The notes beneath the pieces are model-generated. The model was not told the DNA's origin, did no database searches, and saw nothing but the letters and a program-made list of their open reading frames with translations. Positions 1 to 56,858 of a stretch of 64,000 nt of DNA are shown one piece after another; the stretch's first letter is position 1; each line of letters starts with the position of its first letter. The DNA comes from Geosiphon pyriformis uo1 (lineage: Eukaryota; Fungi; Glomeromycota): NCBI GenBank assembly GCA_016748015.1, contig JAAOMT010000128.1, positions 379,538 to 443,537 of the forward strand, read 5' to 3'. The position numbers and the translations under genes are program-made.

Positions 1-730
1 CTTCATATAATGTTCTGTTAAACTATTCTACCAGTTCATTTGTTTGTGAGTGATATGGTGACAATAAAAGTCATTTTATACCAAATCATTAACACAATTC
101 AGTTAATATAGTATTGACAAAATGCATTCCTTGGTCTGATAACAATTTTTTTGGGCATTCATGTCTGCATATTAGATTTTGGTGTATGAATTTGGCTACT
201 GTTTTGGCATTAGCTACTTAGATTGCTCTGGCTTCTGGCCATTTTGTAAGGTAGTCTATGGCTACTGTAATGTAATAATTTCCTTTGAATGTAATCGGGA
301 GAGAACCAACCAAATTTATTCCAATTCTATCAAATGGATTTCTAACTGAAATAGATTGAAGTGGTTCTATTATTCTGGCTTCTCCTTTTTACTGACATGA
401 GTCACAATTGAGAACATACTCAAAGATATCCTTATACATCATAGGCCAATAGTATAGATTTGTTGTTCTTTTCAGAGTTATGTTTTTGTTGAAGTGTTTT
501 GCAATTGGGTTGAAATGCATACTATATAATATAGTTTCTTTTTTACTGTCCTTAATCAATTGTTGTGGGGTGGTGTGGTTTTGTCATTCTTGACAATAGA
601 ATTAGTCATTTTGAATAAAGTAATTTCGTGTTTGTTTCCATATGGTATTTTGTTTCTGTTGAGATAAAATCTTCTTAAAATGTAGTGTTGATAGGTACTG
701 ATGTAATTACTAATAAGTAAGTGTATTCAT
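1..730 (-). pseudogene. Integrase of element E (separate ORF starting MNTLTY), cut by the window edge
   Basis: Reverse strand gives HHCC zinc finger, IGINLVG, DYLTKWPEA, SDQG and YH-QTNELVE motifs. ATG at 730-728, 10 nt after the RNase H stop at 743-741. Confidence 0.85.
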
Positions 731-845
731 GGATTCAAAATTAGATTTGTGGTATCCTCAACAAACTGTTAGCATTGGTGTTCTTGAATCTTTTTTTGTA
801 ATGAACTTTGAGTGGGAATTGTTGCAAATAAGTATTCCATCTCAC

Positions 846-1011: not shown

Positions 1012-1979
1012 TATTACCAGATGAAATTAGAGATATTGTTTAGCATAAAATTATTTTTATAAATCTTATCATTAATTAGCATATATTATCATTTCAAATT
1101 ATCACTTATTATATTAGCAAAATGTCTAAAATTATCATTTAATTAATAACCCAATTTGTACATAACACAAATGTAACCTAAGTATGATGATCAATCATGC
1201 AATACCCCAAAATATGTAACATTCAAAAGTTTGCCGAAATTTATAGAAATTTGCCGAAATAATTGATAATTCACCAAAATATCTAATAGTTTACAGAAAT
1301 AACTTGTAGTTTGCCGAAATGTATCTTTAGTTCAGCAAAATTGTAGAAAAAAGCAAAGTTCAAGTTCATAGAATAGTGTTATGACAAGTTGTATAAAAGA
1401 AGAGCTTCTTTCTTCGAGAAAATATATCTTACTTTAGATTTATTACTTAGAACCATTCCTACACACACAAAAAGAAATAAATATCAAATAATTCGAAAAA
1501 CCAAATTCTTTAATTATTGCACTTGGAAAATCCCCAAAACCCAACTAATGTTTTGAAATTGATTAGCTACCAATTTCAGTAAACTGTTAGTGACTCCAGG
1601 CCTGAATAGAAAACGTTTTCTTTGATAAAATTCTATTTCTTTTACATTTTTTTTATTTTTTTATTATAATCATTAAGGTAACCTACAGACAAGATTCCTG
1701 TAGAAAAGTTGACTTTCACAGCAAAGTAACTACACATTTTTAGTGAGCTTCTAGATGAGCAATTTCTGGGAAAGAGTTGATGTTTACTACAACATAACTA
1801 CACAAAGCAACTGGCATGGAATTGGCCATTCCATTTATAAGCCCAGCAGTTCAAATTATAAGAAATAATTTGAAGATAAATTTAGTTACTGAAGGTTCAA
1901 CCACATTCAGAAAACGTGAATTCATAGCAAACAGGCATCAACAACATTTAGGAAAAGAGACCAAAAACCTCTGGTAATA
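1012..1979 (+). repeat. A 5' LTR
   Basis: Direct repeat of 17591-18568; TT(C/T)GCCGAAAT repeats at 1230-1320; TATA-like GTATAAAA at 1391. Confidence 0.92.
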
Positions 1980-2024: not shown

Positions 2025-3900
2025 ATGGCAACCACACCAAACACAACAACTTTAGAGTATTACCAGTCAATTTATACACACTGCAAGCAAAGATTCAACA
2101 TTCCAGACGGAATTGAAGTTGTCAAAAAATCAGTATACCAATACATTGAAAACTGCATCAACAATTATATTTTTGGAAACTACAACATTTCAGAAGTTAG
2201 AAGCAACCTCTACAATAATTTAGTGTACTATTCACAATTGGGAACAGGAGACCTGAACAATGAAACACTTGCTACCTACTTCCAAGAACTTAATTTTAAC
2301 ATTATTGAGTACTGTGAAGAAAAATACCCAGTACAGTCTAAATATTTTTTTAACTTTGAATCAGAGACAGAAACAAGCAACAAAGGCAAACAAATATTGA
2401 GGCAATACTCAAAAATCACCCTAAATACTCCAATACTACCAAAAACAACTGCCAAACACTTACAAACCCCTGAACAAGGAACCAGTTCAAAACTCCCACT
2501 TACTATTACACCTTTTCCAGCTTCACTTGCACAAGCAGAAACTCCTAATTCACTTTTAAATCAATTTTCAAGACTAAAAAATTATACATCACCCAGAAGT
2601 CCCACCAGACAACAAAAAACCCTTCAGACTAGTACCAATCTTCTTGACTATTTAGCAAAAAACACAAGTGAACACTCTGAAACATTAGCCAATGAAAAAA
2701 ACGTTTCTGAATCCATTGAAGAAGAAGTAGAATCTGAAGAAGAAAGTAAATTAACAGATAAAGAGAAAGAAAACAAAATGACAGCTTATATTGCAAAAAT
2801 TCCCGAATTTAATGGAAAAGATATTGAGACCAGTTTCCAAAAATGGTTCAATCAAGTTACTAAAGCTGGAGATACAAATAGATGGAATGCTGCCAGAATG
2901 TTAAGAACAATTCTCTACTTTCTCAAAGGAACAGCAAATGAATGGTTCGAAAACTTGACCACCCCTTTTAATGACTGAACAGCTTTCAAAACTGCCTTCT
3001 TAGAACAATTCACTAATAACAACACCTTAATCACACTTCAAAATCATTTTCACAATATTAAACAAGAACCCTCCGAATCTGTTATGACTTATATTGGGAA
3101 ATTTAACAAACTTCTCAGATAAATTTGCCAACTTGAAACTAATGATTATTATTCCGATGCTCAAATTCTGTATCAATTTATTGCTGGTTTAAAAGATAAA
3201 CTGATTAAAAAGGTTTGCCCACATGCCCCAAAAGATTTAAACTCTGCCATTCAGCATACAAAGAGATATGAAATAGCCATAGAAAAAGCCAATCGTACAA
3301 AGCTCGTGAACTTAGCCATTGGAGAGACTAGTTCAGCAGCTGAAGAGAAAATTGACCAACTTACAAAAAAAGTCGAAAACTATTTCACCAACCAACAACA
3401 ACAGCAACCCCAAAGATATCAACCACCCCAAAAATGGAATCAAAACAACTTCACATCATCCTCTAATAACCAGCCTCAGAGTTGCCATTACTGTGGAATT
3501 TCTGGCCACTGGAAAAGAGATTGCAGAAAGCTACAACGAGACCAACAAAATAGGAGTAATCAACGTTATCCTCTACCACAGCAATCTTATTATCAACTAC
3601 CACCATTAGCTTACTATCCACCAAAACCCCAATATCAAAGTAATTATTATCAGCCTGCCTCACAGCCAATTTAACAGCAATACCAACAACCACCCACACA
3701 ACATTATCAAGTGCCTGCTCAAAGATTAATTCCACAAAATCAATTTACACCACAAAACTGATACCAAGTAAACAACAATAGAATCAATTTGAACAACCAA
3801 TTAGTTCCCTGAAATCTAGCTCAGCCAAGACTCACCCATTATTATACTCAACCTAGCTATCTTACAATACCTGAAGAACAGGATTTTCACTATACTACAT
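2025..3900 (+). pseudogene. gag: A gag: N-terminal extension, capsid, CCHC knuckle, Q/P/Y-rich tail
   Basis: ORFs 2025-2978 and 3306-3674; IAKIPEFNG and CHYCGISGHWKRDC; internal stops. Confidence 0.85.
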
Positions 3901-4082
3901 TTTTAGAAGGTAGAGCTGCAGTATGACAACAAAACTCTTTTTATACTTCTACCACAATCCTACCAGTCAAAATTGCTGAAAATGCCAACCTTTCAGACAT
4001 ATTCTCTTTTGAGTTTGAAGCAAATGAGTCATCATTCCTGCTTAGCAATGCAGCCACCAATGAACAAAAAGCAATCACTACT

Positions 4083-4400
4083 ATGTACACTGAAACAGAA
4101 GTCGAAGAAAAGGCAATTCACTTGATCCTAAACAGTGGATTTGCCAGAAGCATCATCACTTACCAGTTAATGCAACAGTTAAAAAGAAATGTTAACCGAC
4201 CAGCTCAAACAGTAATTGTTACTGCTGATGACATGAAAAAGACTCTAGTAGAAGAAATTGACAATTTTTTATTCACTCTTGATGGAATCACCATTCCAGT
4301 CAAAGTTCTTGTAATGGATGCACCCCAGTATCAAGCTCTTGTTGGAAATGATTGGCTTCAAAAAGCCAATGCTAATCTGAATTGGGAAACACAAGAGTTA
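4083..4400 (+). pseudogene. A aspartic protease
   Basis: LILNSG (DSG in G) and ALVGNDWL. Confidence 0.85.
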
Positions 4401-4669
4401 ACAATCTCCTACCAAGGACAATACGCCTGGGTATCTGCCATTTGTGGTACATTCAACAAACACTCCGAAAAAGCCACAGCTTTTGAATTCAAACTGGAAG
4501 AAGAAAAGCCCATTACTGAAACATTTATGGCACTTGGATCAACCTTCAATTGGGCCAATGAAACTGAACAACAGTATTTTTCAACAAATGATTCTCTTGA
4601 AACAAAAGAACCAGTGACAACTGGATGGAATGTCTCCTATTCAAAACCAGAACCACAAAAACAATGCCC

Positions 4670-5300
4670 CTACATTCCACTCAAATGCAAGGACTGCCAC
4701 AAGAAACTCTCCTCAATGGAAGCCTGCATTTCACCTGAAGAAGAATATGAAAATTATACTTGTTATTACTGTAAGGCTTGTCACAAAGAATGATAGGACC
4801 ATCTAATAAAAAGAAGTGGAAAATGGGACAACACTCCTTGTTTGACTTGTGAAAATATGCTACCAAAAGAATGCAATTAGATTGATGTAGCAATGAGAGG
4901 AGGAGTCTGTGATCAGACCTGCCAATATGCTTTATTAATTTCAGAAAAAGTAAAAAGAGGAACACCCTTTAATGCGGCATACAACAGTGCTTTCAACAAA
5001 CTTTATCACTATTCCCATGATGCTGAGATGATTTTTGACCTAGCAATGGCATTAATTAATGGAGCTACCAAAGAAAATGTCTGTCAAATGAAAGAAGCAG
5101 AATACATTGAATACACCATGGAATTAGCTGGATTCAATTATGAAGATGAAGTAGAAGTCTACCACCAAATTGCAAGTTACACCTACTCAACCCAAGAAGC
5201 TCAAATTCAATGATTAGAGCAAATGAACATTAGGCTATGTGAAGAATGCATTATGTCTTGTGATGAACAGTGGTGTTCTGAATGCTATGCTCTTAGCATT
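4670..5300 (+). pseudogene. A Cys-rich (multi-CxxC) domain between protease and dUTPase
   Basis: CKDC, CYYCKAC, CLTC, CDQTC, CEECIMSCDEQWCSEC. Confidence 0.7.
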
Positions 5301-5409
5301 CCTCTGCCCAGTAAAAACGATAAAAATGAAATTGAATTTGGAGAACCTGAAGCAACAAAAGAAATTGAAGCAACACCCATCTATCTCATCGAAAACCAGC
5401 CTGCCTTAC

Positions 5410-5840
5410 AACTCAAATACTTCAACAACAATGGACAAGGAATAAAACCCGAAAAAGCACATGAAATTGATGCTGGATATAACTTAAAATATCCAGATAA
5501 GGATACTCTCATTCTCAAATCCAAATCTCTCACAAAAATCAACCTCAAAATTGCTCTCAAAATCCCACCAGGAGCAATGGTTCAAATTGCCTCCCGGTCC
5601 TCTCTAGCAAGCAAAGGAATCAATGTCAGAGGAGGAATAATCGATGCTGAATATACTGGTGACATAACAGTAATACTCCAAAACAAAACTGACAAGCCAT
5701 TTAAGATTGAACATAATGAGAAAATTGCCCAAGCCATTTATTTACCCTTAATCAACATTTCGGGTTTACAATTAGTCAATCAAAGAGAACTATTGAGAAA
5801 AAGTGAAAGAGGAACTCAAGGTTTTGGTTCAACTGGACAA
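5410..5840 (+). pseudogene. dut: A trimeric dUTPase domain
   Basis: All five motifs: DAGYNL, RSSLA, GGIIDAEYTGDI, KIAQAI, RGTQGFGSTG. Confidence 0.92.
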
Positions 5841-6359
5841 TTCACAGTTCCAGTAAACATAGCTTTCAATAAACAGAAAGAATCTCACCAGATTTTACAA
5901 CTTCCACAACCAATTACCATTTCACTCTTTAGAGAACACCTTGAAATTTATACTTGTGAAAAGCCAACAACCATACAACAAATTTTTGAGTCCAACGAAC
6001 AAATCTGCTTGGAATATAATATCTCAATCCCAAACATTTATATTCCAGAAGGAACAAAGAAAATCTGAGTTACTTTTTACAATCCCAACAATTTCCCCAT
6101 AGTTTTATTAAATAACTTAGAAATTGGAGTTATTCACAATAATATTTTTCAATAAGAATTACCCCAAACAGTCCCTGATTTCTCTGAAATTATTGGACAT
6201 TTACTACCAAAAATCAACCCAAATCTCAGCTCTGAAAACTACTATGTTGTTATAGAAAAACTATCTCGAATCAACATGGGACAACTTGAACCACAACAAC
6301 AGAACCAGCTTAAAGAGCTAATTGCAGAATTTGCCAATATCTTTACCGAAAACAACAAT

Positions 6360-7675
6360 GACTTAGGAAGAACTGATTTAGTTCAACACCAAATCTATAC
6401 AGGAGATACCAAACCAAGGCGACAACAAGCCTACTAAGTTGCTCTAGAAAGTCACCAATTTATCCATGAAAAATACAACAAATGCTCAACAATGGGCTTA
6501 TTCAACCATCAATGAGTCCATAGGCCTCACTTGTGGTCTTAATTAAAAAGAAAAATGGAAAGATATGATTTTGTGTTGATTATTGACAACTCAACAGTGT
6601 TACTATTGAAGATGCCTACCCCCTTTCCTGAATTGATAATATGTTAGACACTCTTGAAAAATCCAAATACTTTTTGACATTAGATTTAGAAAGTGGATAC
6701 TGACAAGTTGCCATGGATTCCAAAGATTGCTTCAAAACAGCATTCACTACTCAAGGAGGAAATTACGAGTTCAACATAATGCTTTTCGGATTATGCAATG
6801 TACCAGCAACATTTCAAAGACTCATGGATGTTGTTTACAAAGGCCTTCTTTGGAAATCAATAGTTGTCTATCTCGATAATACTGATGTTTATTCATCATC
6901 TTTTGAATTATATTTAAAACACCTGCAAGAAGTTTTTCAATAATTACAGAAAGCAGAATTGAAACTGAACATCGAAAAATGCTATTTCAGAAAAACAAGT
7001 TTGGTTTTTCTTGGCCACATTGTAAGCAAAGATGGAATTAAACCAGACCCCGGAAAAATCAGTACTGTCAAGAACTTCAAGACTCCATAAAATATCACAG
7101 AATTGAGAGGATTTGGATTAGCTTCCTATTACCGAAAATTCATCAAAGGATTTTCAGAAATTGCAAAATTCCTTAACTAGCTCACTACTAAAAACGTTGA
7201 ATACAAATGGACAGAAAAACACCAAAAAGCTTTTGAAATTTTCAAGGAAAAGCTGACAACAGCTCCAATTCTCGTCTACTCAGACTTCAGTAACCGATTT
7301 CAACTAGCTACAGACACTTCTTATACTGCCTTTGGTGCCATCTTATCACAATTAGATGACAACAGAAATGAGCGAGTAATCGCTTATGCTAGCAGAACAT
7401 TAAAACCAGCTGAGAAAAACTACCCTGCCACAGAACTAGAAACAGCAGCCATAATCTGGGCCCTACATCACTTCAACCTTTATTTCAGGCCTAAAGAATT
7501 TGATATTATCACTGATAATATTGAACTCAAATGACTTCAGAACAAAAACACCCAACTGAATGCAAAACAAACTCGATAGACAAGATTTTTAGCCAACTAC
7601 TGATACATTGTACACCACAAACCAGGAAAACTCCACACCAACATTGATTGTCTCTCAAGAATGAGACAAGATTAA
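6360..7675 (+). pseudogene. pol: A reverse transcriptase-RNase H
   Basis: KTAFTT, M-FGLCN-PATFQR, YLDN (YLDD), TD-S, IAYASR; ends LSRMRQD-TAA at 7673-7675. Confidence 0.9.
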
Positions 7676-7715
7676 CCAACACCTATTTGAATTAACAACA
7701 ACAAAACAACAAACA

Positions 7716-9101
7716 ATGAACCCCGAAAACTACAACAATCTTAAACAATATCTGGAGACATTAACAATCCCAACAGATTGGTCTCCAGATGAAAAACATC
7801 AGTTACAACAACAAGCCAAACAATACTTCTTACACAACAACATTATTTATTATCGAAACTTCAGAAACCCAGACAGTCCACTCTGATTAATACAAGAACA
7901 TAAAAAAGAAATTATTTTATATAACATGTACTCAGACCCTTCATTAGCACACCTAGAAAAAAACAGCACCACTCAGAGAACACTAGAATATTATTTTTGG
8001 CCTCAAATAAGAAAAGACATTCATGAATATGTTAAGTCTTATGATAATTGTCAAAGAAGAAAAGGAACTCACCCTACAAAACTTTTAAACCCAATCAAAG
8101 TTGGACAGCCTTTTGACCGAATTGGTATTGATTTAGTTGGACCACTCCTTATCACAAACCAAAGAAACCGTTATATTGCAGTAGCAGTAAACTATCTCAC
8201 CAAATGGCCTGAAGCCAGAGCTATTCAATGAGCAGATGCAAAATCAGTAGCAAATTTCATCTATGAAGACATCATTTGTAGACATGAATGCCTAATAGAA
8301 CTTTTATCTGATCAAAAAACACATTTTGTGAGCAATTTAATCCAGAAAATTTGTAGACGATTTAATGTCAAGAGACCATTATCTTTGTCCTACCATCCAC
8401 AAACAAATGGACTTGTAGAATGTTTCAACAGAACATTGTTTGAATCATTAGCCAAAGTCTTAACCAATTTTGAGCAAGAATAGAATTTCTTTATTTCATT
8501 AGTGTTACTAGCATATAGAACACTAAAACAAGATACCACAAAACACATACCATTTGATTTAACTTATGGAAGGACAGCAACATTACCAATTAGTTTTACA
8601 GTGGAAACATACCCAGCACAACCAATTAATAAAAACAATTTCCAGGAAACACTACAACAAAGAGCCTACACTCTGCTTAGCACATTGGAAGGAAAATGAT
8701 GAATAGCAGCCACCTATATTAAACACTCCCAAGCTCAACAAAAAGAACAGCATGACGACAAATTGCCTCCAGTTACCAATGGATTTAAAATCAGAAACAA
8801 AGTTCTCTTACACAGAACTAAAACTGAAAAACAATGGAGTGGAAAATTTGAAAATAAATGGGATAGACCATTCTTTATCTATAAAGTCCTAGACAACAGA
8901 TCATACAAGCTAAGACTTGATGACAAAATCCTAGCAAAAGTTGTACATGGAGATTGTTTGAAACACTATAATTTCAGAAACAATCCTGAACTATTAATTC
9001 CACAAATTGGCACACATTCCTCTTTAATTAATCCCAAAGATATTCCCTGGAATTTAGAACCAATAGTTGTCATTGAACAATCTTCCAACTTGAACACTTA
9101 A
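7716..9101 (+). pseudogene. A integrase (own ATG; GPF-type C-terminus, no chromodomain)
   Basis: MNPENY start; YYFWP, IGIDLVGPL, YHPQTNGLVE, KWD-PF, LEPIVVIE. Confidence 0.9.
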
Positions 9102-9170
9102 TTTAAATTTATTATTATAGTTATTTTCTTATAATTTAGAAACAATCTCACAAAAACAAAACAAAAATAA

Positions 9171-9834
9171 TGTTATGGGTTGAAGTAACAAGCTAACGGA
9201 TAGCAAGAGAGAACAGTATTGTATGGTAATGGAAATAAACAAAGAAGGAATTACAATAAGGGAGCGAATTGAATAAGTAAGAATTCAATGTGCATGATCA
9301 GTCTCATAAAAATCACAGTCGCTAATTTTTTCTTAAATCTGAAGGTAGAGAAATAGTCCGTGATTGTCAACAAGATAACACCGCTGCTATTATTCTATGC
9401 CTCAACTTGGTAATTCTTAGAATCAATAACAGATATTGTTGTACTTTTTAATCATTTCTTTATTCAATGAATTACAAGAGCAAGCCAATTGCTTCTCAGG
9501 CTAATTCTAACAAATACAAATCAAGAAGGAAAAAAGATAAGGTATGTGAATGCCAACAAGTAGATACTTGAAAGTAAGGAAAGGGGAATAAGTGATTATG
9601 AGAGAAAGTAATTGATATTATTTATTTCGTTACTTTTATCATCTTTCTACAGCTAAGAGAATCATTGCTTATATAGCTATCTAAAGTGGTCAACAACCAG
9701 GTTAATGATCAGGTCAATGATCAGGTCAATGGTCAGGTCAACGATCACTATCTAAAAATAAAGTGGTTAATTATATAATATTAGTGGCTAATACATGTGA
9801 TAATTAATAAAAACTATGTGTTTTAACCGTAACA
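9171..9834 (-). repeat. B 3' LTR
   Basis: TGTTA...TAACA; repeat of 16168-16845; TGATCAGGTCAA tandem units at 9695-9747. Confidence 0.93.
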
Positions 9835-10556
9835 TCATCCTCTTCAAAGAGATTGAGCTCTGGCAAAATCAAACTATTTATGGGATAGTCTATGTGAAAA
9901 GTTTTGTCTAACTCAAAATTAACTAGTTTGTTGAAGTCTTTTGTGGATAGAGTATATAGTACTTGAGGCGAAATAAGCTTTGTATCCAAGAGACCAAATC
10001 TTTATATTAGAGTTTTGGCTTTTCTAGCAATGGTTAAAACTCTTGGGACATCTAAACGTATAATGCCCAAAATTTCCACTTGTATCTCTGAAGTTGTTTT
10101 CTTTATGAGCTTCATGTCTTCTATGATTTCACTAAGACAACCATAGAGTTCTAGTTGTCTTCCATATAACAAGTTTTTGTCTATGGGCAAGATTTTTTGT
10201 ATTGTTTTTCCAATTGTGCTAGAAGGTGAAAATATCACTGCTGTTATGCTTTCCAGCAAGTATTTATCCATTTTGCCACCAATTCTTTCTCTTCTGGTAG
10301 TTGTTTTCTTTGGTCTAATAATAGTGTGAGTTTCACTGTTGTCTGTTATAGTGGTTTGTTTTCCAATAGTCAGAGTAGCATTTGGATAGTTCTTGATCCA
10401 GTACTCATGGAGAGTATAGAAAGCGTTTTGAATGTTTTGATCCAGGAAATAATTGTTCATGTTGATTGAAGATACCTCTGTTTTGGGAATGGTGCATTTA
10501 TTTATATCTAATTTTTGCTGATCATTTGGGTCAGTATTACCACAACAGGTAACCAA
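9804..10556 (-). pseudogene. B ORF3 (unknown accessory protein, frameshifted)
   Basis: ORFs 10002-10556 and 9804-9989 between IN and PPT; motif similarity to ORF3 of A, C and D. Confidence 0.6.
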
Positions 10557-11821
10557 TCAGGTCGTTTGTGATATTTCTTGAATTGTGTGCCATGAACAGG
10601 GCAATCACTGAATATTGTTCCATATTGATCTTGTAAGATATAAGAACTATTGTTCAAAACTTTGTTGACTATAAAGGGTCCTTTCCACCAGCTAGAGAAT
10701 TTATTACCATAAACATTGTCTCTGTCTGAACGGTATTCCAAAACTAAGTCACCAACACTTAAGGAAAGTGTTTTATAGGTCTTTTTCTTTTTGAGCTTCT
10801 CTTGGAACTGTTTTATCTTTTCAAAGACAATTATCCATGCTTCTACTAATGAGTCAAGAATGGTACCAAGTCTTCTTTGCAAAATGTCTTTGTAATCTCC
10901 TATTGTTATTTCTTCAAAAGGTATTGTTTCTATATCCGTTTCTATTGGTAGAGTTGCCATTTGTCCATAGAACAGATAAAAGAGTTTATAACTTGTTATG
11001 TCATGATTCACAATTCTGTAAGCAAACAAGACTGAAGGCAATACTTTGTTTCATAGGTTGGTTTCTTCACTGGTTTTGGCTAGAGTTTCACATAGTGTTC
11101 TATTGAAACATTCTACTAGGCCATTTGTTTGGGGGTGATAAGGGGAAGAGAGTTTATGACGTATTCCCATTTTTCTGCAAAATTCTTCAACCAGTGTACT
11201 GAGAAAAACTCTTCCTCTATCAGATAAAAGTTCTTTGGGGCAGCCATGACAACGGATAATATCTTCATAAATGAAATTGGCAATTGAGACTGCTGTTTGA
11301 TCTGGGGTGGCTTTTGCTTTTACCCACTTTGTAAGATAGTCGGTAGCTGTGATAATGTATCTGTTGCCATCAGGAGTTACTGTTAAAGGTCCAATAACAC
11401 CTATACCAATTCTATCAAATAGTTGACCAACAGAGATTGGATGGATATCTTCCTTGCAATTGGGTTTTCCTCTTCTTTGGCAGGTATCACAGGTTTTGAT
11501 GTATTCAGCAATGTCTTTTCCCAAGGTAGGCCAATAATAGCAAGCTAAAGTTTTCTGAATTGTTTTTGTTTTTCCAAAGTGTCCAGCTAATAGATCAGTG
11601 TGCATATTGTAGATCACAATTTCTCTTTCTTCAAATCTAATGACTCTCTGGGGGCAGTCAGGATCTTTTTTATTTCTTTTATATAACTGGTTCTGGTGAA
11701 TCAAATAGAAATTTGATTGTTTGCACAAATGTTCTCTTTGCTGTTAAGTATAGTCTGGTGGGTATTGTCCTTTACCCAAAAATTTTATTAAAGCAGAGTA
11801 GTTGTCCAAGTCCATTATCAT
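10508..11821 (-). pseudogene. B integrase (separate ORF)
   Basis: ATG at 11821 or 11815; GHFG, YYWP, CDTCQ, SDRG, YHPQTNGLVE, WKGPF; ends WLPVVVILTQMISKN. Confidence 0.9.
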
Positions 11822-11880
11822 GTTTGTTTGTAGGGGAGTTACAAATAATTAAGTTGGTTTGGTTTAAGAGGGTTTTACTA

Positions 11881-14574
11881 TCACTGGATGGTAAGTCTGG
11901 AAAGAGCGTTGGCATTTTGATGATTAGCTTCTTTGCAGTGTTGAATGTCATAGTTGAATTTGTCCAAGTGGAGTATTCAGTGAGTTATCCGTTTATGTTC
12001 CAAGTTTCTTTTGTTGCATAGCCAAACCAAAGCTTGGTGATCTGTTACCACCAAAAATTTCACACCCTTAAGATATTTGTCCCAGTAGCTGGTAGCCCAA
12101 ACTACTGCTAAGCATTCTTGCTCAGTGACTGAATAGTTCTTTTCTGCTGGTGTGAGAGTTCTGTTGGCATATGCTATGGCATGTTCCCTGCCATCTTCGT
12201 CTTTCTGAGAAAAAACAGCACCAAGTCCATAGCCAGATGTATCAGTGTGGAGGAAAAAAGGTCAATCCAAATTAGGTTGCATGAGGATGGGTTCTGTAAC
12301 CAGTTTTTTCTTCAGAATTTCAAATGCTTTTTGTTGATGAGTGCCCCAGTGATAATTGATGTTTTTTCTAAGTAGCTGATTGAGAGGAGCAGCGATTTTG
12401 GAGAAATCCTTGACAAACTTGCAATAATAAGAGGCCAAACTAAGAAAAAAGCGTAGTTCATGAACATTCATTAGTTGTTTAATGTTTTGAACTTTTTCAA
12501 TTTTGGCTGGATCAGAGAAGATTCCATCTTTTGTAATAAGATGGCCAAGGAACTGGGTGGATTGATGTCCAAAGAATGATTTGATTGGATTGATCTTGAG
12601 ACCAGCATTTCTAAGGAGGTCAAAAACCTTTTGCAAATGTTCAAGGTGTTCATCCCAGGTTTTTGAGTACACCATTATGTCGTCCAAGTAGACTAGAACA
12701 AAGTTTTGTTTTACTGATTCAAATACTTTGTCCATTAAGCATTGAAATGTTGGAGGAGCATTTGTGAGACCAAAAGGCATAACTGTGAATTCATAGATAC
12801 CATACTTGGTGATGAAGGCAGTTTTCTTTCTGCTTTCTGGATCCATCTCTACTTGCCAGAATCCAGCAGTTAAGTCAATGGTTGAGAAAAAAGCGGCACC
12901 ATGGAATTGGTCTAGCATTGCATCAATCTTGGGAAGTGGGTACATGTCTCTTTTAGTAATGGCATTTAATTAGCAATAATCAACACAAAAGCATAGGGTT
13001 CCTCCTTTCTTGGATACCACTACAACTGGGAATGCCCATTCACTCTTGGTTTTCTGTATGAATCCAAGGGTTTTCATTCAGGTTATTTTCTTTTTGATAA
13101 ACTCATTATTGCATTGGTTGGATTGATAGGGCTTCAAATGGATGAGGCGAGTTTCTCTGGTGATGATGGTGTGTTGTATCACATGTATATGTCCAGGAGG
13201 TTCACCTTTTTTTGAGATAACTGGGCTGTTTCTAGCCAGCAGATTTTTAATGTCTACTTTTCTTTCTTCTTGAGAGAGTTCTCTTTGTTTTACAACCAGT
13301 GATTGGATTTCAGGTGGTTTGTTTTCAAAGGACTTTTGGACTTCTTTTATTTTCTCTTGGGGTATCAAGCTGATTGGTTCCCAATCTTTGTAATAGATTA
13401 GGCAGGACATGCATTTATCACTAGGAAAATACAATGGTTTATCACACCAGCACTGGGCACAAGGACTATGCCACCAATAACTGTATTTGGCTTTCTTGCC
13501 TGGCTTTCTGTCAAAGGTTCTTCTGAGCATGTCATAATAAAGCCAGCAGATCAGCTTGCCATTAACAATGATTCCTTCTTTATCTGCCTTGACATTATCC
13601 AGTAGTTTGCCATTGCTAGTGAAGATGGTATAGGCGAGTTCAGCAGTTTCTTCTTGTTCTTCTTGTTCTTCTTCTTTCTCACTTTCTTCATCATCTGATT
13701 TATCTGATTTATTTTCTTCTGGGCTTTGCTTGGATACTGGGGGAGTTGTCCAATGACAACACTTAACCACAATGGGTTTCTTACCACATCTGATGGTTAG
13801 TTCACAGAGTTCATAATCAAGCAAAGCCTTTGCCTTCTTGAGCCATTCATTGCCAACAATAATGGTGTATTTTTTTGCTTTAGACACTTCCATATCAGTT
13901 TCAATGCTGATGCCATTGATGCGGACAGGAATAGCTTTGGCTATGCCAAGTCCTTTTTTCTTATCACCATGCACATTGGTCATTGGTTATGTGGATGGTT
14001 CATCAATTTTTCTGCCAATTGCTTCAAGAAAGTGTTTGGCAATAACACTAACAGATGATTCACTGTCTAGGATCAAATTGATGAAGTAGCCAGCCACTTG
14101 GGCTTTACAAATTAGAGAAGTGACATTGCTATTGTCAGCAAGTCCAGCTTGGCGAGGGTGTTTGTTGGTTTTGGGTGTCTTTTTCTTTGGAATCAGGAAT
14201 TTGCGAAGATCTTTTCTGAATTGTGGATGGGTCATCAATTGGCCAAAGGTTATATGTGCTGGAGTTTCTATAAGGTCTTTGACAACAGAATAGGGACCGG
14301 ATTTTTGTACTATTTCTGGGGATTCCAACTTTGGAGGGTTCTTGAAAACTTTGGCTTTTGGGGGCTCATTGTTGTTAGCAGTTGATGTAGAAGCTTTATT
14401 GGGGTCTAGAACGAAATCAACTTTGGCTTTCTTCTTCTTTCTTGTGGATTCAGAGGGGTTGATTGCTAATTCATCCATGTTATGGTTATCATCAGTTAAG
14501 TTAAAAGCATAAAAGAGGTTTTCTTCTGGTTGGCTTGCACTCTCACCCTTTGGAGGTGCACCTACCAGTTTAAA
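11881..14574 (-). pseudogene. pol: B pol (protease, short Cys region, RT, RNase H) in the -1 frame relative to gag
   Basis: LILDS, IIVGNEWL, YPLPKID, MPFGLTNAP, VYLDDI; ends ALSRLTIQ followed by TGA TAG TAA. Confidence 0.9.
14536..14574 (-). promoter_or_regulatory. -1 ribosomal frameshift signal of B
   Basis: T TTA AAC heptamer, 6-nt spacer holding the gag stop, then a TGCAC...GTGCA stem; the -1 frame reads FKLVGAPPKGESASQPEE into pol. Confidence 0.8.
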
Positions 14575-16142: not shown

Positions 16143-16161
16143 AACCTCACAGGGAGCACTA
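16143..16161 (-). promoter_or_regulatory. PBS of B (tRNA 3' end AACCUCACAGGGAGCACCA, probably elongator tRNA-Met), 6 nt from the LTR
   Basis: TAGTGCTCCCTGTGAGGTT; the H copy reads TGGTGCTCTCTGTGAGGTT. Confidence 0.8.
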
Positions 16162-16167
16162 CTTTTA

Positions 16168-16845
16168 TGTTATGGGTTGGAGTAACAAGCTAACGGATAG
16201 CAAGGGAGAACAGTATTGTATGGTAATGGAAATAAACAAAGAAGGAATTACAATAAGAGAGCGAATTAAATAAGTAGGAATTTAATGTGCGTGATCAGTC
16301 TCATAAAAATCACAGTTGCTAATCTTTTCTTAAATCTGAAGGTAGAGGAATAGTCTGTGATTGTCAACAAGATAACACCACTGCTATTATTCTATGTCTC
16401 AACTCGGCAATTCTTAGAATCAATAACAGGTATTGTTGTACTTTTCAATTGTTTCTTTATTCAATGAATTACAAAAGCAAGCCAATTGCTTTTTAGGCTA
16501 ATTCTAACAAATACAAATCAAAAAGGGGAAAAGATAAGATATGTGAATGCCAACAAGTAGATACTTGAAGGTAAGGAAAGGGGAATAAGCAATTATGAAA
16601 GAAAGTAATTAATATTGTTTATTTCATTATTTTTATCATGTCTTTCTACAGCTAAGAGAATCATCACTTATATAGCTATCTAAAGTGATCAATGATCAGG
16701 TCAACAATCAAGTCAATGATCAGGTCAATGGTCAGGTCATTGATTAGGTCAATGATCACTATCTAAAAATAGGGTGGCTAATTATATGACATCAGTGGCT
16801 AATACATGTGATAATTAATAAAAACTATGTGTTTCAACCGTAACA
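16168..16845 (-). repeat. B 5' LTR
   Basis: Repeat of 9171-9834. Confidence 0.93.
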
Positions 16846-16944
16846 ATAACATAAAAACCCATACACCAAAAATAATTTTCTTTTATTTTCAAATCTTTTA
16901 TAATAACTATTCCTCAAAACATTTAACAATTATCCCAAAAACTA

Positions 16945-17622
16945 ATGTTAGCTTTAAAAACAATATCCAAATTATCTATTACTATTACTAGAAACCACAT
17001 TAATTATACCCAAACAGAAGTAGTCACAAATTTAGCCCCAAATTCACGAAAATATCACCCATATAAAAAAAACACAAGAAGTTATTCTGGAATTCACCTG
17101 CCAGAACTTTTAAAGCTTGCTTTAAGAGAAAACTTAATGCTCACTCTTATTAGTATTCCACCAAATGCTATTATTTAACAAAAACTTCAATTGTGTCTTA
17201 ATGAAGAAAACTACAACTATACTCCAATATATAGATATTTTTATATTGGAAAAACACTTCACAAACAAAAACGGGAGCTTACAGCAGCAAACCTCACAAA
17301 AGAAGCTATTTGGAAACAACTCTACAATGAATTCAAGACAACAGCTGGACCTACAAATAGTCATTATAAACTAAGAGCTGCTTTTAGACTTTATGACTTA
17401 TTTCACACCTGTGAAAACGTTCTACAAAACCCAATTTTTCAGCCTTTAAAGATTCAATACATTGGAAAGCTTACAGAACTAAAATTTCAACAATTTTCAG
17501 ACCAAATTTCTTTAATAATTTTGGATTATTATCTGAAATTTACAGACAGTAGTTGGACTTCGATGGAGCTCAGTCTTGAGGAAGAGTTTATGTTACCAGA
17601 CAAAATTAGAGATATTGTTTAG
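16945..17622 (+). pseudogene. A ORF3 (unknown accessory protein) running through the PPT into the 3' LTR
   Basis: ORFs 16945-17178 and 17191-17622, in the same frame; homologous remnant in G at 49165-49299. Confidence 0.65.
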
Positions 17623-18568
17623 CATGAAATTACTCTTATAAATCTTATCATTAATTAGCATATATTATCGTTTTTAATTATCACTTATTACATTAGCAAA
17701 ATGTCTGAAATTATCATTTAATTAATAACCCAATTTGTACATAACACAAATGTAACCTAAGTATGATGATCAATCATGCAATACCCTGAAATATGTAACA
17801 TTCAAAAATTCACCAAAATTTGTAGAAATTCGCCGAAATAATTGATAGTTCACCAAAATATCTAATAGTTTGTAGAAATAACTTGTAGTTCGCCGAAATG
17901 TATCTTTAGTTCAGTGAAATTGTAGAAAAGAGCAAAGTTCAAGTTCATAAAATAGTGTTATGACAAGTTGTATAAAAGAAGAGCTTCTCTCTTCGAGAAA
18001 ATATATCTTACTTTAGATTTATTACTTAGAATCATTCCTACACACACAAAAAGAAATAAATATCAAATAATTCGAAAAACCAAATTCTTTAATTATTGCA
18101 CTTGGAAAATCCCCAAAACCCAACTAACGTTTTGAAATTGATTAGTTACCAATTTCAGTAAACTGTTAGTGACTCTAGGCCTGGATAGAAAACGTTTTCT
18201 TTGATAAAATTCTATTTCTTTTACATTTCTTTTATTTTTTTTTATTTTCTTATTATAATCATTAAGGTAACCTACAGACAAGATTCCTGTAGAAGAGTTG
18301 ACTTTTACAGCAAAGTAACTACACATTTTTAATGAGCTTCCAGACAAGCAATTCCTGGGAAAGAGTTGACATTTACTACAATGTAAATACACAAAACAAC
18401 TGGCACGAAATTGGCCATTCTACTTATAAGTTCAGCAGTTCAAATTATAGAAAATAATTTGAAGATAAATTCAGTTACTGAAGGTTCAACCACATCCAGA
18501 AAACGTGAATTTACAGCAAACAAGCATCAACAACATTTAGAAAAAGAGACCAAAAACCTCCAATAATA
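17591..18568 (+). repeat. A 3' LTR
   Basis: Repeat of 1012-1979; preceded by the PPT GAGGAAGAG. Confidence 0.92.
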
Positions 18569-20620: not shown

Positions 20621-20680
20621 TTTGGTGCTCCTTGTGAAATATAATCCTACAGAGAACCAGCACCAACAACACCATTCAAA

Positions 20681-25659: not shown

Positions 25660-26974
25660 ATGAGTTTGGCCAAACTAACATCATCTAGCATCAAATCAAG
25701 ACTAGAGATGCAATGCCAATTAAACAAAGAGCATACAGAGTACCACCAGCTAGCCATAAAATCATTCGTCAAGAGATAAACCAAATGCTTAACAACAGGC
25801 TAATTCAATTATCAATGAGCCCATGATCATCACCAATGGTACTTGTCCAAAAGAAGAATGAAAAAATCTGATTTTGTGTGGACTACAGAAAACTCAATAG
25901 TGTAACTCGTGGAGACAGCTATCCAACTCTAAGAATACAAAAATTGTTTGACACTTTTGGCGGAAACAAATGGTTCTCAACATTAGACTTAGACAGTGGT
26001 TACTAGTAAGTAGCCATGGATCCAGCCAACAAGGAGAAGATGGCATTCACCACTAGAGAAGGGAATTTTGAATTTGAAGTAATGCCCTTTGGCTTAACCA
26101 ATGCCCAGCCACTTTCCAATGGCTAATGGAAATTGTTTATACTGGCTTATTGTAGAAATCAATAGTTGTATACTTGGATGACACCAATGTATTCTCAAAA
26201 ACATTTGATGATCATCTTTATCATCTTCAACAAATGTTCGAAAGACTAAGAAGAGCAGGACTAAAGTTAAATGCAACAAAGTGCTTCTTTGGCAAGACAA
26301 AACTAAAATTTTTGGAACACATAGTTAGCAAAGATGGCATCAAAACGGATCCAGAGAAAATAGAGATAGTAAAAAACTTTCCAGTACCAATTAATGTAAC
26401 TAAATTGAAATCATTCTTGGGATTTGCAAGCTATTATTAATGCTTTATAAAGAACTTTTCAAAGATAGCTTAACCACTCAATAATCTGCAAACTAAGAAT
26501 ACAAAATATGAATGAACAGAAAGTCAATAGGAAGCTTTTGATATTCTGAAAAAAAAGCTTATTCAAGCTCCAGTACTGATCTACCCAGATCACAACAAAC
26601 CATTCATTATTACCACTGATATATTAGGCCAAGCATTGGGAGCAGTACTATTTCAGAAGGGACCAGACAGCAGAGAACATCCAGTAGCATATGCCAGCTG
26701 AGGTCTAACACCAGCCAAAAAAAACTATGAAACATCAGAACTAGAACATTTAGCAATCTATTGGGCAGTCATAAAGTAGAACAAATACTTGAGCCAAAAG
26801 TTTAATATATACACGGATCATAAAGGGTTAACATCACTTTAAAAGCAAGAATTTGATGACAGTCACCAATCCAGATGGAAAATGGCACTCTCACAATATA
26901 CTTATACTATACATTATAAGAAAGGAAAAGACAACAAAAATGCCGACAGTTTGTCGTGAATAAGACAAATCTAA
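25660..26974 (+). pseudogene. pol: C RT-RNase H
   Basis: VDYRKLN, MPFGL, YLDD, PVAYAS; stop at 26972-26974. Confidence 0.88.
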
Positions 26975-27036
26975 GAACATTTCAATCCAAAAATATAACA
27001 AAACCAGAACAATACCAATGAAAAATATAACAAAAG

Positions 27037-28419
27037 ATGAACATACAAAAATATTAACAACTTCAACATTATATAAACACTTAACAGTTTAAGGAGAATT
27101 TATCTCAAATGGAATGAAAGAGTATCAAACAACAATCAAAATATTTTATCACTCACTAAAATATACTTTATCAGAAAAATAGAAGAGATTTAGATCAACC
27201 AACCAAAGTAATAACAGAGCCAGAAAAAGAGACAATATTATTCAACATGCACTCAAATCCAACAGCAGGACACTTTCACAAAGAAGCAACCATGGAAAGA
27301 ACCAGAAAAAGATACTATTGGCCATCAATGTATCCAGACATCATCCAATATGTTCAAAATTGTGACGCTTGTCAGCAAAAAGAAGGAACAAGACCCAGTG
27401 AACCATTAAGACCAATCAAAGTGAGACAACTATTTAACCATATTGGAATTGATTTAGTCGGACCATTAACAATCACCAGCAGAGGAAACAGATACATAGC
27501 AGTAGCCATGGACTATTTTACTAAATGGCCAGAGGTGAAAGCAATTCAAAAAGCAGATATAGAATCTGTTGCCGAATTCGTTTATTAGGATTTGATTTGT
27601 CAACATGGATGTCCAAAAGAATTATTATCAGACCAAGGAACGCATTTTGTGAACAGAACATTAACAGAATTGAGCCAAAAATTCAGAATTAAGAGACCAT
27701 TATCATCACCATACCATCCACAAACCAACGGATTAGTCAAAAGATTCAACAGAACATTGTGTGAAGCAATAGCTAAGCTCAACCAAGAAAACCAGAACGA
27801 TTGGGATTTGTTAATACCATTAGTACTATTTGCTTATCAGACAATAAAGCAAGATACTATACAAGCAACACTATTTGAATTAGTATATAGTAGAACAGCA
27901 ACACTACCAATGGAAATAGAAGTCAGCACATACCCAACTGAACCAATAACAGAAGAGAATTTCAAAAACACATTGTTGAGAAAAACATATGACTTAATAG
28001 AAACATTAAAAAACAAATGACAGAGAGCAGCTGATAATATACAAAGGTCACAAGAGAAACAAAAAGAAAGACATTATAACCAACTACCAGATAAACCAGT
28101 TGAATTCAAGATTGAAGACAAAGTACTACTACATTGTACCAAAGCAGAAAAACAATGGAGTGGAAAATTTGACCCCAAATGGGATGGACCATTTCACATA
28201 GAAGAAATTCTAGGAAATGGAGCTTACAAATTAAGATTAAATAACAAAATCTTGACCAAAGCAGCACATGGAGATCGACTGAAACCATACCACCATATAG
28301 TATTATCATCCACCAGTAATATTCCACAACTGAGAGTACAGAGAATAATAGTCCAACCAGATGAGATTTCACGAGATCTGGAACCAATCATTATCATTGA
28401 TAACAACATGTCTAATTGA
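27037..28419 (+). pseudogene. C integrase (separate ORF)
   Basis: MNIQKY start; GHF, YYWP, CDACQ, SDQG, YHPQTNGLV, WDGPF, LEPIIIID. Confidence 0.9.
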
Positions 28420-28444
28420 TCAACAGAAAGAATATATAAAGACA

Positions 28445-29100: not shown

Positions 29101-29116
29101 TAAAAGAAGGGAATAA

Positions 29117-34359: not shown

Positions 34360-35665
34360 AATAAGTTTGGATGCACCAACATTGTAAAGCATCAGATTGA
34401 TACAAAAGATGCTCGACCAATTAAGCAACAAGCTTACTGAGTACTCCCATCTGGTGATAATTTAATTAAGCAAGAAGTACAATAGATGCTTGACAACAGT
34501 TTAATCAAAGAATTGTTAAGTCCATGGTCTTTTCTAGTAGTCTTAGTTACTAAGAAAAATGAAAAGGTATGATTTTGCATGGACTACAGGAAACTAAACA
34601 GTATTACTCAAGGAGATAGTTATCTCACTCTCTTCATTCAAGAAATTCTAGACAATCTAGGAAAAAAGAAATGGTTCTTATCATTAGATCTAGCAAGTGG
34701 TTATTGGCAAGTTGAAATGGACCCCAAAGACAAAGAAAAAACAGTATTTACCACTCGAGACAAAAACTTTGAGTTTAACATAATGCCTTTTGGATTTTGC
34801 AATACTCCCATCACATTCCAATGTCTCATGGATATCATATACAAAGGAATTCTGTAGAAATTAGTCATAGTATATCTAGACAATACCAATGTCTTCTTTG
34901 AAATGTTCAATGATCATTTGCTCTATCTACAACAAGTCTTCAAACACCTTTATAAGGCCGAATTGAAACTCAACCCCAATAAATGCTTCTTTGAAAAAAC
35001 CGAGTTAAAATTTCTAGGACATGTAATCAGCAAAGATGGAGTTAAACCCAATCCAGATAAGATCCAAAAAGTCAAGAATTTTCCAGCCCCAATCAACTTT
35101 AGAGAATTATGAGGATTTTTAAGATTGGTAGGATATTATTGTCAATTTGTCAAAGGTTTCTCAAACATTGCAAAATCACTTCATTATTTGTTGTCCAAAT
35201 ACATACTATACTTATGGAAAGAAAATCAACAGAAGGCATTTGACTATCTCAAGCAGCAATTGATCACATCTCCAATCCTGATTTACCCAGATTTCACTAA
35301 ATGGTTCATTGTTGCTATGGACACCTCAAAAAATGCTCTAGGAACAGTCTTATCACAGATAGGACCAGACAATAGAAAACATCCAGTTGCCTACACCAGT
35401 CACAGCATAAACCCAGCAGAAAAGAATTATGGCACAACAAATTTGGAATGTCTTGCCATTTATTGGGTCATACAGACTTGGAAACATTACTTCAGTTAAC
35501 TATTTGACTTACAAAGGACTTATTTGGTTATTCAACAATTCACAACTAGAAAAAAAATATGTGAGATGGAATACTTATTTGCAACAATTCTCACTCAAAG
35601 TTTATTATAAGGAAAAATCCAAAAACACCAATGCCAACAGTTTGTCGAGAATGCCACAAACTTAA
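34360..35665 (+). pseudogene. pol: D RT-RNase H
   Basis: DYRKLN, DLASGYWQ, MPFG, YLDN, PVAY; ends SLSRMPQT-TAA. Confidence 0.9.
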
Positions 35666-35675
35666 TTCCAGACTC

Positions 35676-37042
35676 ATGAACACACTCACTTATCAATGAC
35701 TACATTAGTACCTATTGACACTATGTTTCAAGGAGATATTATCTCAACAGAAACAAAGTACCATATAAAAACAAGCCCAAAATTATTTTATTTAAGACAA
35801 CCAACTATATCGACAAGAATGCCAAAACCACCTCACTCCACAATAACTAATCAAGAACAGTAAAAGAGAAACTATACTATATAGTATGCACTCAGATCTG
35901 ATGTCAGGACATTTTAACAAAGATGCTACTCTCGAAAAAACACTAAATTTATATTATTGGTCAATGATATACAAAGACATTTTCGAATACATGCTCAATT
36001 GTAACACATGCCAGCAAAAAGAAGGAGTAAGATCAACAGAACCACTTTGACCCATTTCAGTTGGAAATCCATTTGATAAAATTGGGATCAATTTGGTTGG
36101 TCCTCTCTTAATTACATCCAAAAGAAATTGGTATATCACTGTAGTCATTGATTATCTTACAAAATGGCCAGAAGCCAGAGCAATTCAAGTGGCCAATGCC
36201 AAAACAGTAGCTGAGTTTGTACATTAAAACCTAATTTGCCGATATGGGTGTCTGAAAAAATTGTTATCCGATTAAGGAATGCATTTCGTCAATAATACAT
36301 TAACAGAATTAAGCCAATGGTTTGGTATAAAACGTTCTTTATCATCATCATACCACTTACAAACTAATAGACTGATAGAATAGTTTAACCAAACACTTTG
36401 TGAAGCACTAGTAAAAATAAGTCAAAAAAATAAACAAGAATGGGACTTATTCATACCTTCAGTACTCTTTACATACTGAATAGTAAAGCAAAATATAACA
36501 CACTTCACATTATTTGAACTAGTCTATGAAAAGAAAGCTACGTTACCTATTGAATGAAAAATATTATTCTACCCAATAGAAACAATCACTGAAGAAAATT
36601 TTAAAGCTACTTTGTACCACAGAATGTATCAGCTAATAGAAACGTTAAAAAACAATTGAAAAACAGCAGCTGATAACATTAGTAATACTCAAAAATGACA
36701 AAAGAAAAGACATGACAATTGCCTACCTGAACAACCAATGGAATTCAAGATTGGAGACCAGGTACTGTTACATCATACAAAAGCTAAGAAACAGTGAAGT
36801 GAAAGTTTGACTCAAAGTGAAATGGTCCATTCTACATACATGAAGCTTTAGGAAATGGAGCTTACAAACTATGATTGGAAGACAGGATTTTAAAGAAAGT
36901 AGCACATGGAAATTGGTTAAAAATTTATCATGCAAAACAGGAATCATTATCATTAGTACCTCAACTAGGAACACAAATTTCATTAATCAGACCAGAAAAT
37001 ATACCACGAGATCTAGAACCAATCATTATTATCGAAATGTAA
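35676..37042 (+). pseudogene. D integrase (separate ORF)
   Basis: MNTLTY start 10 nt after the RH stop; GHF, CNTCQ, DYLTKWPEA, GPF, LEPIIII. Confidence 0.88.
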
Positions 37043-37850: not shown

Positions 37851-37869
37851 TCTAAAAAGAGAGGGATAA

Positions 37870-38590: not shown

Positions 38591-38684
38591 TTTTTGTTTT
38601 TTTTGTTTTTTTTGTTTTGTGTTTTTTTGTTTGTGTTTTGTTTTTGTTTGTTTTTGTTTNNNNNNNNNNNNNNNNNNNNATACT

Positions 38685-49760: not shown

Positions 49761-51146
49761 TTAAGTGTTCAAGTTTGGTTGTTGTTCTATTATAATTATT
49801 AGTTCTAAATTTCGGGAAATATCTTCAGGATTAATTAAAGGAAAATGTGTACCAATTTGTGGAATTAATGGTTCAGGATTGTTTTTGGAATGATAGTGTT
49901 TCAATCTGTCTCCATGTGCAACTTTTGCTAGTATTTTGTCATTAAGTCTTAACTTGTATAATCCATTGCCTAGAATTTTGTAAATATAAAATGGTCCATC
50001 CTATTTGTTTTCAAATTTCCCACTCCATTGTTTTTCAGTCTTAGTTCTGTATAAGAGAACTTTATTTCCAACTTTAAATTCGTTGGTAATAGGTGGTAAT
50101 TTGTTGTCATGTCTTTCTTTTTGTTGAGCTTGGGAATATTTAATATGAGTTGCTGCTATTCTTCTTTTTTCTTCCAGTGTACTAAAAAAAGTGTAGGCTT
50201 TTCTTTGGAGTGTTTCTTGAAAGTTTTCTTCATTGATTGGTTGCACTGGGTATGTTTCTACTGTAAAATTAATTGGTAATGTTGCTGTCCTCTCATAAGT
50301 AAGATCAAATGGTATGTGTTTTATAGTATCTTGTTTTAGCATTCTGTATGCTAGTAACACTGATGAAATAAAGATATCCCATTCCTGCTCAAAGTCTGTT
50401 GAGACTTTGGCTAAAGATTCACACAATGTTTTGTTGAAACGTTCTACAAGTCCATTTGTTTGAGGGTGATAAGGTGATGATAAAAGTCTTTTAATATTGA
50501 ACCATTCACAAATTTCTTGTATCAAGTTGTTCACAAAATGTGTTCCTTGATCAGATAAAAGTTCAATTGGGCATCTATGTCTACAAATAATGTCTTTATA
50601 GATGAAATTTGCTACTGATTTTGCATCTACTCTTTGGATGGCTCTAGCTTCAGGCCATTTGGTAAGATAATCTACTGCTACTGTAATATAGCAATTTCTT
50701 TGGGTTGTAATAGGTAATGGTCCGACTAAATCAATTCCAACTCTGTCAAAAGATTGTCCAACTTTGATTGGATTTAAAGGTTCTGTGGGGCAAGTTCTTT
50801 CTCTTCTTTGACAACTATTACAAGATTCTACATATTGTTGAATGTTTTTTTGCATGTGAGGCCAAAAATAATGTTCAAGAGTTTTTTGAATTGTTCCATC
50901 TCTTCCCAAGTGTGCTGAAGATAGATCTGTGTGCATGTTGTATAAAATTGTTTCTTTTTTATTCTCTTGTACTAATCTGAGTGGTTGGTTTGGGTTTCTG
51001 TGATTTTTATAATAGATTTTGTTCTGGTGTATGAAATATTGTTTTAATTGGTGTTGTAAACGATGTTTTTTACTTGGAGACCAGTTTTCTGGCATGATAA
51101 GGGTCTCCAAATAATTTTTAAGATTGCTGTAATTTTTGGAATCTAT
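49761..51146 (-). pseudogene. G integrase (separate ORF; start codon reads ATA where A has ATG)
   Basis: ORF 50001-51110 with HHCC and DDE motifs. Confidence 0.9.
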
Positions 51147-51203
51147 TCTTGTTTGGTTATTTTGTTGGTAAGTTGGTAAGTTGTGGTGGAATTGTTGTTG
51201 GTA

Positions 51204-56813: not shown

Positions 56814-56858
56814 TTTGAATTTGTTGTTGCTGTGTTATTTCTATGGAAGAGCACTAAA

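Follow-up and report, generated by a model that had tools for sequence, protein, structure and literature searches.

Carrying integrase inside Gag-Pol is the textbook way in which LTR elements and retroviruses set the amount of the enzyme and its entry into the particle. Gmr1-like elements also hold integrase inside Pol, upstream of reverse transcriptase (RT), and Ginger DNA transposons possess an integrase without LTRs and RT. The ICTV profile of the Metaviridae (Ty3/Gypsy) lists integrase as a domain of pol and describes the RNA as translated into polyproteins (PMC7879559). The Troyka elements, according to an excerpt of their description (PMC12440569), live in animal hosts, have CG...CG ends and 3-bp duplications, and mostly encode a single Gag-Pol containing integrase. 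No Gypsy group with a separate integrase ORF was described in the literature searched, which takes in few subscription journals and no Repbase Reports, and none appeared in the accessible portions of PMC8647823 (with 8 supplements), PMC11952901, PMC11075540, PMC3248453 and PMC11673190. Kuafuorterviruses were considered as a prior description and rejected. If integrase is encoded apart from Pol, its delivery to the DNA would have to follow an unusual route. Such a layout was encountered in the 64,000-nucleotide stretch of Geosiphon pyriformis uo1 DNA analysed here (the window).

Elements and junctions in the window

Self-comparison and reading of element borders showed that nested, decayed LTR retrotransposons, designated A, B, C, D, E, G and H, fill the window (Table 1). 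Pfam domains for Gag, CCHC, protease, dUTPase, RT, RNase H and integrase were recognised, and the closest named proteins belong to Rhizophagus irregularis, R. clarus and Cetraspora pellucida, which by itself makes an arbuscular mycorrhizal host likely. Element B lies on the minus strand, inserted inside the ORF3 of A upstream of its remaining 3' part; E is the 3' half (849-1) of an element whose 5' half occupies 45635-39124, the two being split by the insertion of D; H is a truncated B-like copy. The target duplication of D (849-854 and 39123-39128) has GCAA at one end and GTGA at the other, a difference that CpG deamination on opposite strands would produce. Primer binding sites common to the families have the form TGGTGCTC...TGTGA (1980-2000, 20621-20640, 16147-16166 and 56839-56858), which we take to resemble the 3' end of elongator tRNA-Met. 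A Cys-rich stretch of ~250 aa separates protease from dUTPase in A (about 4800-5400) and also occurs in C, D and G. Runs of N are present at 49300-49681 and 38660-38679, the first of which masks most of the ORF3 of G.

Table 1. Positions of element features within the window
Feature	Position	Strand	Remarks
Element A 5' LTR	1014..1979	+	92.5% identical to 3' LTR 17593-18568
Element A gag-pol, decayed (Gag, CCHC knuckle, protease, Cys-rich region, dUTPase, RT, RNase H)	2025..7675	+	Pfam, translations
Element A junction: RNase H end, TAA 7673-75, 40-nt A/C-rich spacer, integrase ATG 7716	7660..7740	+	
Element A integrase ORF, 461 codons, decay stops within	7716..9101	+	
Predicted RNA hairpin, 33 nt 3' of element A integrase start	7749..7791	+	
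Element A ORF3, 3' part, ending on polypurine tract and LTR start	16848..17595	+	
Element B junction: TGA-TAG-TAA 11883-11875, 65 nt from first stop to conserved Met 11815	11815..11883	-	
Element B integrase ORF	10508..11815	-	
Element B ORF3, one internal stop	9831..10460	-	
Element B LTRs	16167-16845 and 9170-9834	-	90% identical, 4-bp target duplication
Element C junction: decayed LSR codon 26957, TAA 26972-74, 62-nt spacer, integrase ATG 27037	26957..27039	+	
Element C integrase ORF	27037..28419	+	
Element C ORF3	28444-29103	+	
Element C LTRs	19699-20620 and 29117-30039	+	91.5% identical
Element D junction: TAA 35663-65, 10 nt, ATG 35676	35650..35678	+	
Element D integrase, frameshifted through decay	35676..37042	+	
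Element D ORF3	about 37123-37855	+	
Element E junction: TAA 743-741, 10 nt, ATG 730	728..756	-	
Element G junction: TAA 51206-51204, 57-nt spacer, ATA 51146	51144..51220	-	
Element G integrase ORF: zinc-binding H2C2, DDE core; premature stop 50003-50001	49761..51146	-	
Element G LTRs	56859-57880 and 48142-49164	-	95.4% identical, 4-bp target duplication ATGG

Six junctions between RNase H and integrase are visible, representing four families; A/G and D/E are family pairs, so the six are not independent. All six are split: the RT-RNase H frame is closed at the fifth codon past the LSR position, and integrase begins 10-65 nt further on. This agrees with the sequence-only reading, which had described integrase as free-standing in all four families and RT-RNase H as ending a few codons past LSR. 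It had also counted five of the six junctions as out of frame, correctly, G alone being in frame and open. Its junction coordinates all check out, except that it started the B integrase at 11821, where an ATG is indeed in frame, whereas the Met-Asp start common to relatives is at 11815. Element E carries LLR in place of LSR; in C the LSR arginine itself has decayed to TGA, and the spacer of C holds an out-of-frame ATG at 27018. The long CAA-rich spacer is particular to the window families, relatives ranging from overlaps to 727 nt. The proposed tricistronic order of gag-pol, integrase and ORF3 holds as a minimum, some relatives having extra ORFs between Pol and integrase.

Fixation and spread of the split layout

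A search with the G integrase returned 1,624 proteins of 209-667 aa; because this length range excludes fusions, longer proteins were searched separately. The start Met coincides with the first position of the query in 97 of the best 120 of the 1,624 (3 earlier, 20 later), and it stands where fused relatives carry a linker. Among the longer-protein matches listed (at least 120), the six with at least 44% identity were five NCBI gene models and the open-frame contig protein P0124, which is a real open in-frame Pol-integrase fusion. The RT-RNase H search gave at least 120 matches, and the 98 with at least 54% identity were scored: 87 stop no more than 30 residues past RNase H, four have a longer tail without an integrase match, one lacks the RNase H end, and six carry integrase sequence (three R. 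clarus gene models and three proteins, P0350 among them, that group outside the clade defined below). The tail after RNase H is exactly 3 residues long in 27 of 89 scored RT proteins, with some contig proteins possibly ending at a contig edge. Eight NCBI gene models joining RT to integrase or part of it were examined. Seven of the eight lack D-x-LSR, a motif that presumably carries an RNase H acidic residue, and their cut points differ, so that these fusions look like invented introns. The Pol of some families includes a NUDIX domain (PF00293; P0255, P0257, P0272 and P0336), that of others a dUTPase.

Of 80 metagenome loci, 14 are clade members in which RNase H and the integrase start are both visible, and genome contigs supplied two more. 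The split is present in 16/16, with spacers of -11, -8, -1, 30, 62, 63, 63, 74, 89, 117, 136, 158, 308, 365, 521 and 727 nt. The same scan applied to 21 more distant loci found RNase H reading through into integrase, providing an internal control; the broken loci L039, L053 and L065 were left unscored. Between RNase H and the stop, 268-587 extra residues are found in L012, L018 and L084. A Pol C-terminal extension with Cys/His motifs occurs in several families (L012:3494-4441, L084:137-943, L005:2-544, L020:3-332) and gave no Pfam match in the ORFs tested. A conserved 51-aa ORF lies between Pol and integrase in L017:393-548 and L041:778-933, its stop 25 nt past the integrase ATG. Directly 5' of integrase in L015 (509-1237) is a 238-aa ORF matching the restriction endonuclease domain Mrr_cat_2 (E 5.5e-9), which is joined to both neighbours by ATGA overlaps. 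An in-frame TGA followed by CTA, which looks like a stop-readthrough signal, separates protease from RT in two subclades (L002:870-875, L023:1585-1590, L018:3358-3363), and close relatives of L002 and L023 have been called as RT-only proteins of 470-502 aa. Viral contigs yielded 3 weak loci. Prokaryote genome contigs yielded 4 at clade level (L084, L085, L086 and L090), one of them from Candidatus Glomeribacter gigasporarum; element contigs in bacterial genome records are likely host-DNA contamination.

Trees were built from database matches. In a FastTree of 232 rows, one clade with support 0.999 takes in all 7 window RTs and 7 split loci, together with 90 proteins ending at RNase H, 3 extended proteins, 3 gene-model joins and 3 true fusions. 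A quick IQ-TREE search on the RT of 40 of these rows recovered the clade (SH-aLRT 99), in which 23 rows are split and 6 fused. By these trees the split is the majority state of one clade, the wider clade including P0124 and, by the RT tree, five more in-frame fused relatives. P0124 groups with the split L003, L008 and P0092 at 99/97 in the integrase tree, which suggests that it arose through re-fusion. Holding all split rows together was not rejected (AU p 0.067, 31 rows), and a single origin of the split is possible. One IQ-TREE run was rooted on long branches; its root fell inside the split group and was set aside as misplaced.

The window copies are visibly dead, with stop codons at 0.9-3.4% per codon in RT and heavy C>T/G>A change, and the junction stops could in principle be further products of C-to-T decay or of assembly error. 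We give this explanation almost no credence. The stop occupies the same codon in 6/6 copies; at each copy's own density of decay stops, a stop within 10 codons in every one of the four families has P about 1e-3. The spacers are non-coding and contain indels, the split recurs in loci that are otherwise open-framed (L003, L012 and L013, for example), and many integrases of 419-430 aa are annotated in R. irregularis, a model fungus with copies that look intact. The A/G family is present at very high copy in DNA run X1 (64,721 contigs), where fixation of the stop could be checked: among the 683 contigs covering the G junction, no stop variant reaches 3%. Because X1 may derive from the same sample as the window, this shows fixation within the family and not in an independent genome. 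At the ATA start of G, the X1 copies read ATG in 23,431 of 42,581 depth (55%). No young copy of a window family was found with an open in-frame RNase H-integrase junction. Integrase dN/dS values of 0.25 (A-G), 0.15 (D-E) and 0.31 (C-G) indicate that the enzyme evolved under purifying selection. The earlier contention that random decay does not explain the pattern is upheld by the shared stop codon, its invariance in X1 and the split state of the relatives. The split itself, its fixation in a high-copy family, its spread over many families and purifying selection on integrase are all observed, and the evidence supports the free-standing integrase as a fixed, lineage-wide layout rather than decay.

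ORF3 and the translation of integrase

A search with the ORF3 of L012 gave 110 clusters at 50% identity, and in 10 loci a downstream ORF is matched by its profile with E no higher than 2e-6. In the window, the ORF3s of A, C and D match the C-terminal half of the profile weakly (E 0.002-0.006; B 0.16), compared with E 1.3 or worse for reversed and opposite-strand controls; the window ORF3s are likely homologous to the L012 family. The structural model is confident and all-helical (pLDDT 96.5), the median length is 146 aa, and 0/74 members reach a hydropathy of 1.6 over 19 residues. As modelled, ORF3 is a conserved, soluble, helical family and not Env, because it is all-helical and short and no member has a hydrophobic segment. 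No Pfam family was found in more than 1/74 members, and Foldseek comparison with PDB and viral models gave nothing at or below E 0.001. The best VIA match (Z 5.2, rmsd 3.9, 82 aligned) is background for a helical bundle; top ESM Atlas scores (0.90-0.92, 126-138 shared features) were to unrelated sets and are leads only.

For the synthesis of integrase we lean, with moderate confidence, towards termination-reinitiation on the same full-length RNA, judging from the arrangement of stops and starts. Gag-protease-RT-RNase H would end at the fixed stop and integrase would use its own start codon. After termination a small share of ribosomes would stay on the RNA and restart at an overlapping AUG, or, where the spacer is short and unstructured, scan through it to an AUG with a favourable context, and ORF3 would be reached by the same stop-and-restart route. 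Integrase might then be carried into the particle bound to its own template RNA, or might join the cDNA once reverse transcription is complete. The Pol stop overlaps the integrase start in 3/16 loci (L003 with TAATG, L008 at -11, L023 at -8). The dipeptide [NYHD][GE], as left by an overlapped ATG, ends 12/84 RT proteins versus 8/528 inner tail positions (P 1e-6, with related sequences counted separately). Extra ORFs are likewise chained by overlaps in L015 (two successive ATGA), L016 (-8) and L029 (TGATG), and ATGA couples integrase to ORF3 in L006. Nine of 12 spacers of 10-89 nt are free of ATG, the long window spacers barely fold (0 to -2 kcal/mol), and A stands at -3 in 21/36 integrase starts versus 48/153 inner Met codons (P 0.004). 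SART1 and HvV190S provide precedents for reinitiation among retroelements and fungi (PMC10275272, excerpt), and the UAAUG of CHV1 supports 2.5-4.4% reinitiation (PMC2699510, excerpt).

Several observations speak against this route. Excerpted text of PMC10275272 gives 20 nt as the stop-start distance for TURBS-type reinitiation, and most window spacers, at 40-65 nt, are longer; among Pol-integrase junctions, 5/22 have stop and start no more than about 20 nt apart. The core motif of TURBS is TGGGA (UGGGA), which was found upstream of the stop at 0/19 junctions. Some long spacers are rich in ATG and hard to scan across (L002, 365 nt with 7; L018, 727 nt with 12; L084, 308 nt with 4), and the out-of-frame ATG in the C spacer counts in the same direction. 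Overlaps and good start context would also fit compact genomes with separate mRNAs. For non-LTR elements, reinitiation has been judged improbable where a long ORF is followed by a long intergenic region, and an internal ribosome entry site (IRES) has been preferred (PMC3894237, excerpt). No RNA structure, upstream structure included, is common to the whole lineage. The predicted hairpin past the integrase start occupies the same place in A and G (z -3.8 and -3.9; D z -2.6) and is absent from B, C and E; it was selected out of some 50 windows that were folded, and deamination could account for its double changes, so we treat it as a lead only.

A subgenomic mRNA, made from an internal promoter in RT/RNase H or by splicing from the 5' LTR leader into an acceptor that precedes the ATG, would accommodate the good start context and the ATG-laden spacers of L002, L018 and L084. 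It has a parallel in foamy virus Pol, which comes from a separate spliced RNA (PMC3185757, excerpt), and would suit the modest depletion of ATG in the 60 nt upstream (20 seen versus 31 expected, 34 loci). Candidate YAG acceptors, however, are not enriched upstream (49 seen versus 52 expected) and none lies within 40 nt of the ATG at 11/21 junctions; chains of three or four ORFs would need one mRNA each, and the repeated stop/start overlaps would go unexplained. We consider this source of integrase rather unlikely, and favour termination-reinitiation over it because of those overlaps (TAATG, ATGA) and the coupled ORF chains in relatives. That the spacer acts as an IRES on the full-length RNA, as proposed for non-LTR intergenic regions (PMC3894237, excerpt), seems very improbable: the spacers are A-rich, G-poor (G 2-10% in the window) and unstructured, but they share no sequence or fold and measure 10 nt or less, or are missing, in 5/22 junctions.

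Slightly less credible again is continued production of a Pol-integrase fusion through stop readthrough, frameshifting or splicing. The reading frame is shared across 5/22 junctions (G, L010, L011, L013 and L090), the TGA-CTA of relatives hints that recoding is used elsewhere, P0124 is a real open fusion, and the eight NCBI gene models discussed above join the two enzymes. Yet all three frames are represented among the junctions, A and G differ by 17 nt in spacer length within one family, B has three stops, and the conserved Met would be unneeded. A GT-AG splice that keeps LSR and fuses intact RNase H to integrase is possible at 1/19 junctions overall and at 0/6 in the window, and the gene models, with their differing cut points and loss of D-x-LSR in 7/8, weaken the case they would make.

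Beyond the preferred termination-reinitiation at the integrase start, a serial stop-and-restart polycistronic RNA might operate across the whole fungal radiation, encoding Gag-Pol, optional cargo ORFs, integrase and ORF3, with ORF3 helping reinitiation or carrying integrase to the particle. This extension is unlikely on present indications; if true, it would add to the replication strategies of Ortervirales a new one and would offer a ready step from LTR elements to integrase-only DNA transposons. That an abundant group lacks a Gag-Pol integrase shows that another route exists, and the elements offer natural material for studying reinitiation after a long ORF in fungi and integrase delivery in trans. 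Annotation is affected as well: the gene models of these genomes seem to contain invented introns by which the end of RNase H is lost, and pipelines expecting one Pol frame would score the elements as broken.

Comparison with known systems

The elements are Ty3/Gypsy-derived, with a novel stand-alone-integrase organisation. They share with Metaviridae the TG...CA LTRs and 4-bp target duplication (B and G), LTR pairs 90-95% identical (A, B, C and G), primer-site-like and purine-rich motifs at the borders, a Gag with Retrotrans_gag, Ty3_capsid and zf-CCHC, and Ty3-type enzymes in the order PR-RT-RH-IN. Among solved structures, the integrase profile matches Ty3-G Gag-Pol best (E 5.9e-53). They differ in that integrase is its own ORF (6/6 window junctions, 16/16 clade loci), followed by a non-Env ORF3. 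Unlike chromoviruses, none of the best 120 (of 1,624) free integrases has the chromodomain PF00385 listed, and unlike errantiviruses and other env-bearing elements, the ORF after integrase lacks Env surface/transmembrane features. Troyka was rejected as a match, the termini here being TG...CA and the duplications in B and G 4 bp, as set against the excerpted description of that group.

Integrase is uncoupled from the RNase H end in Gmr1-like elements and in Ginger DNA transposons as well; matches with the Gmr1 order fall outside the clade, and Ginger is set apart by description. Foamy virus, as far as the excerpt of PMC3185757 describes it, likewise makes an enzyme apart from Gag and needs a special packaging route, but it expresses the whole of Pol, integrase included, from a spliced RNA, whereas here RT stays on the Gag side and integrase alone is separate. 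SART1, the hypovirus CHV1 (UAAUG) and the victorivirus HvV190S have a downstream ORF coupled to a stop codon, as is putatively the case in these elements, L003 carrying the same TAATG. SART1 requires RNA structure downstream of the stop (PMC10275272, excerpt), and a hairpin is predicted downstream of the stop in A and G, though not lineage-wide. These three are, however, other kinds of element with other genes, and most junctions here have a spacer of 10-90 nt.
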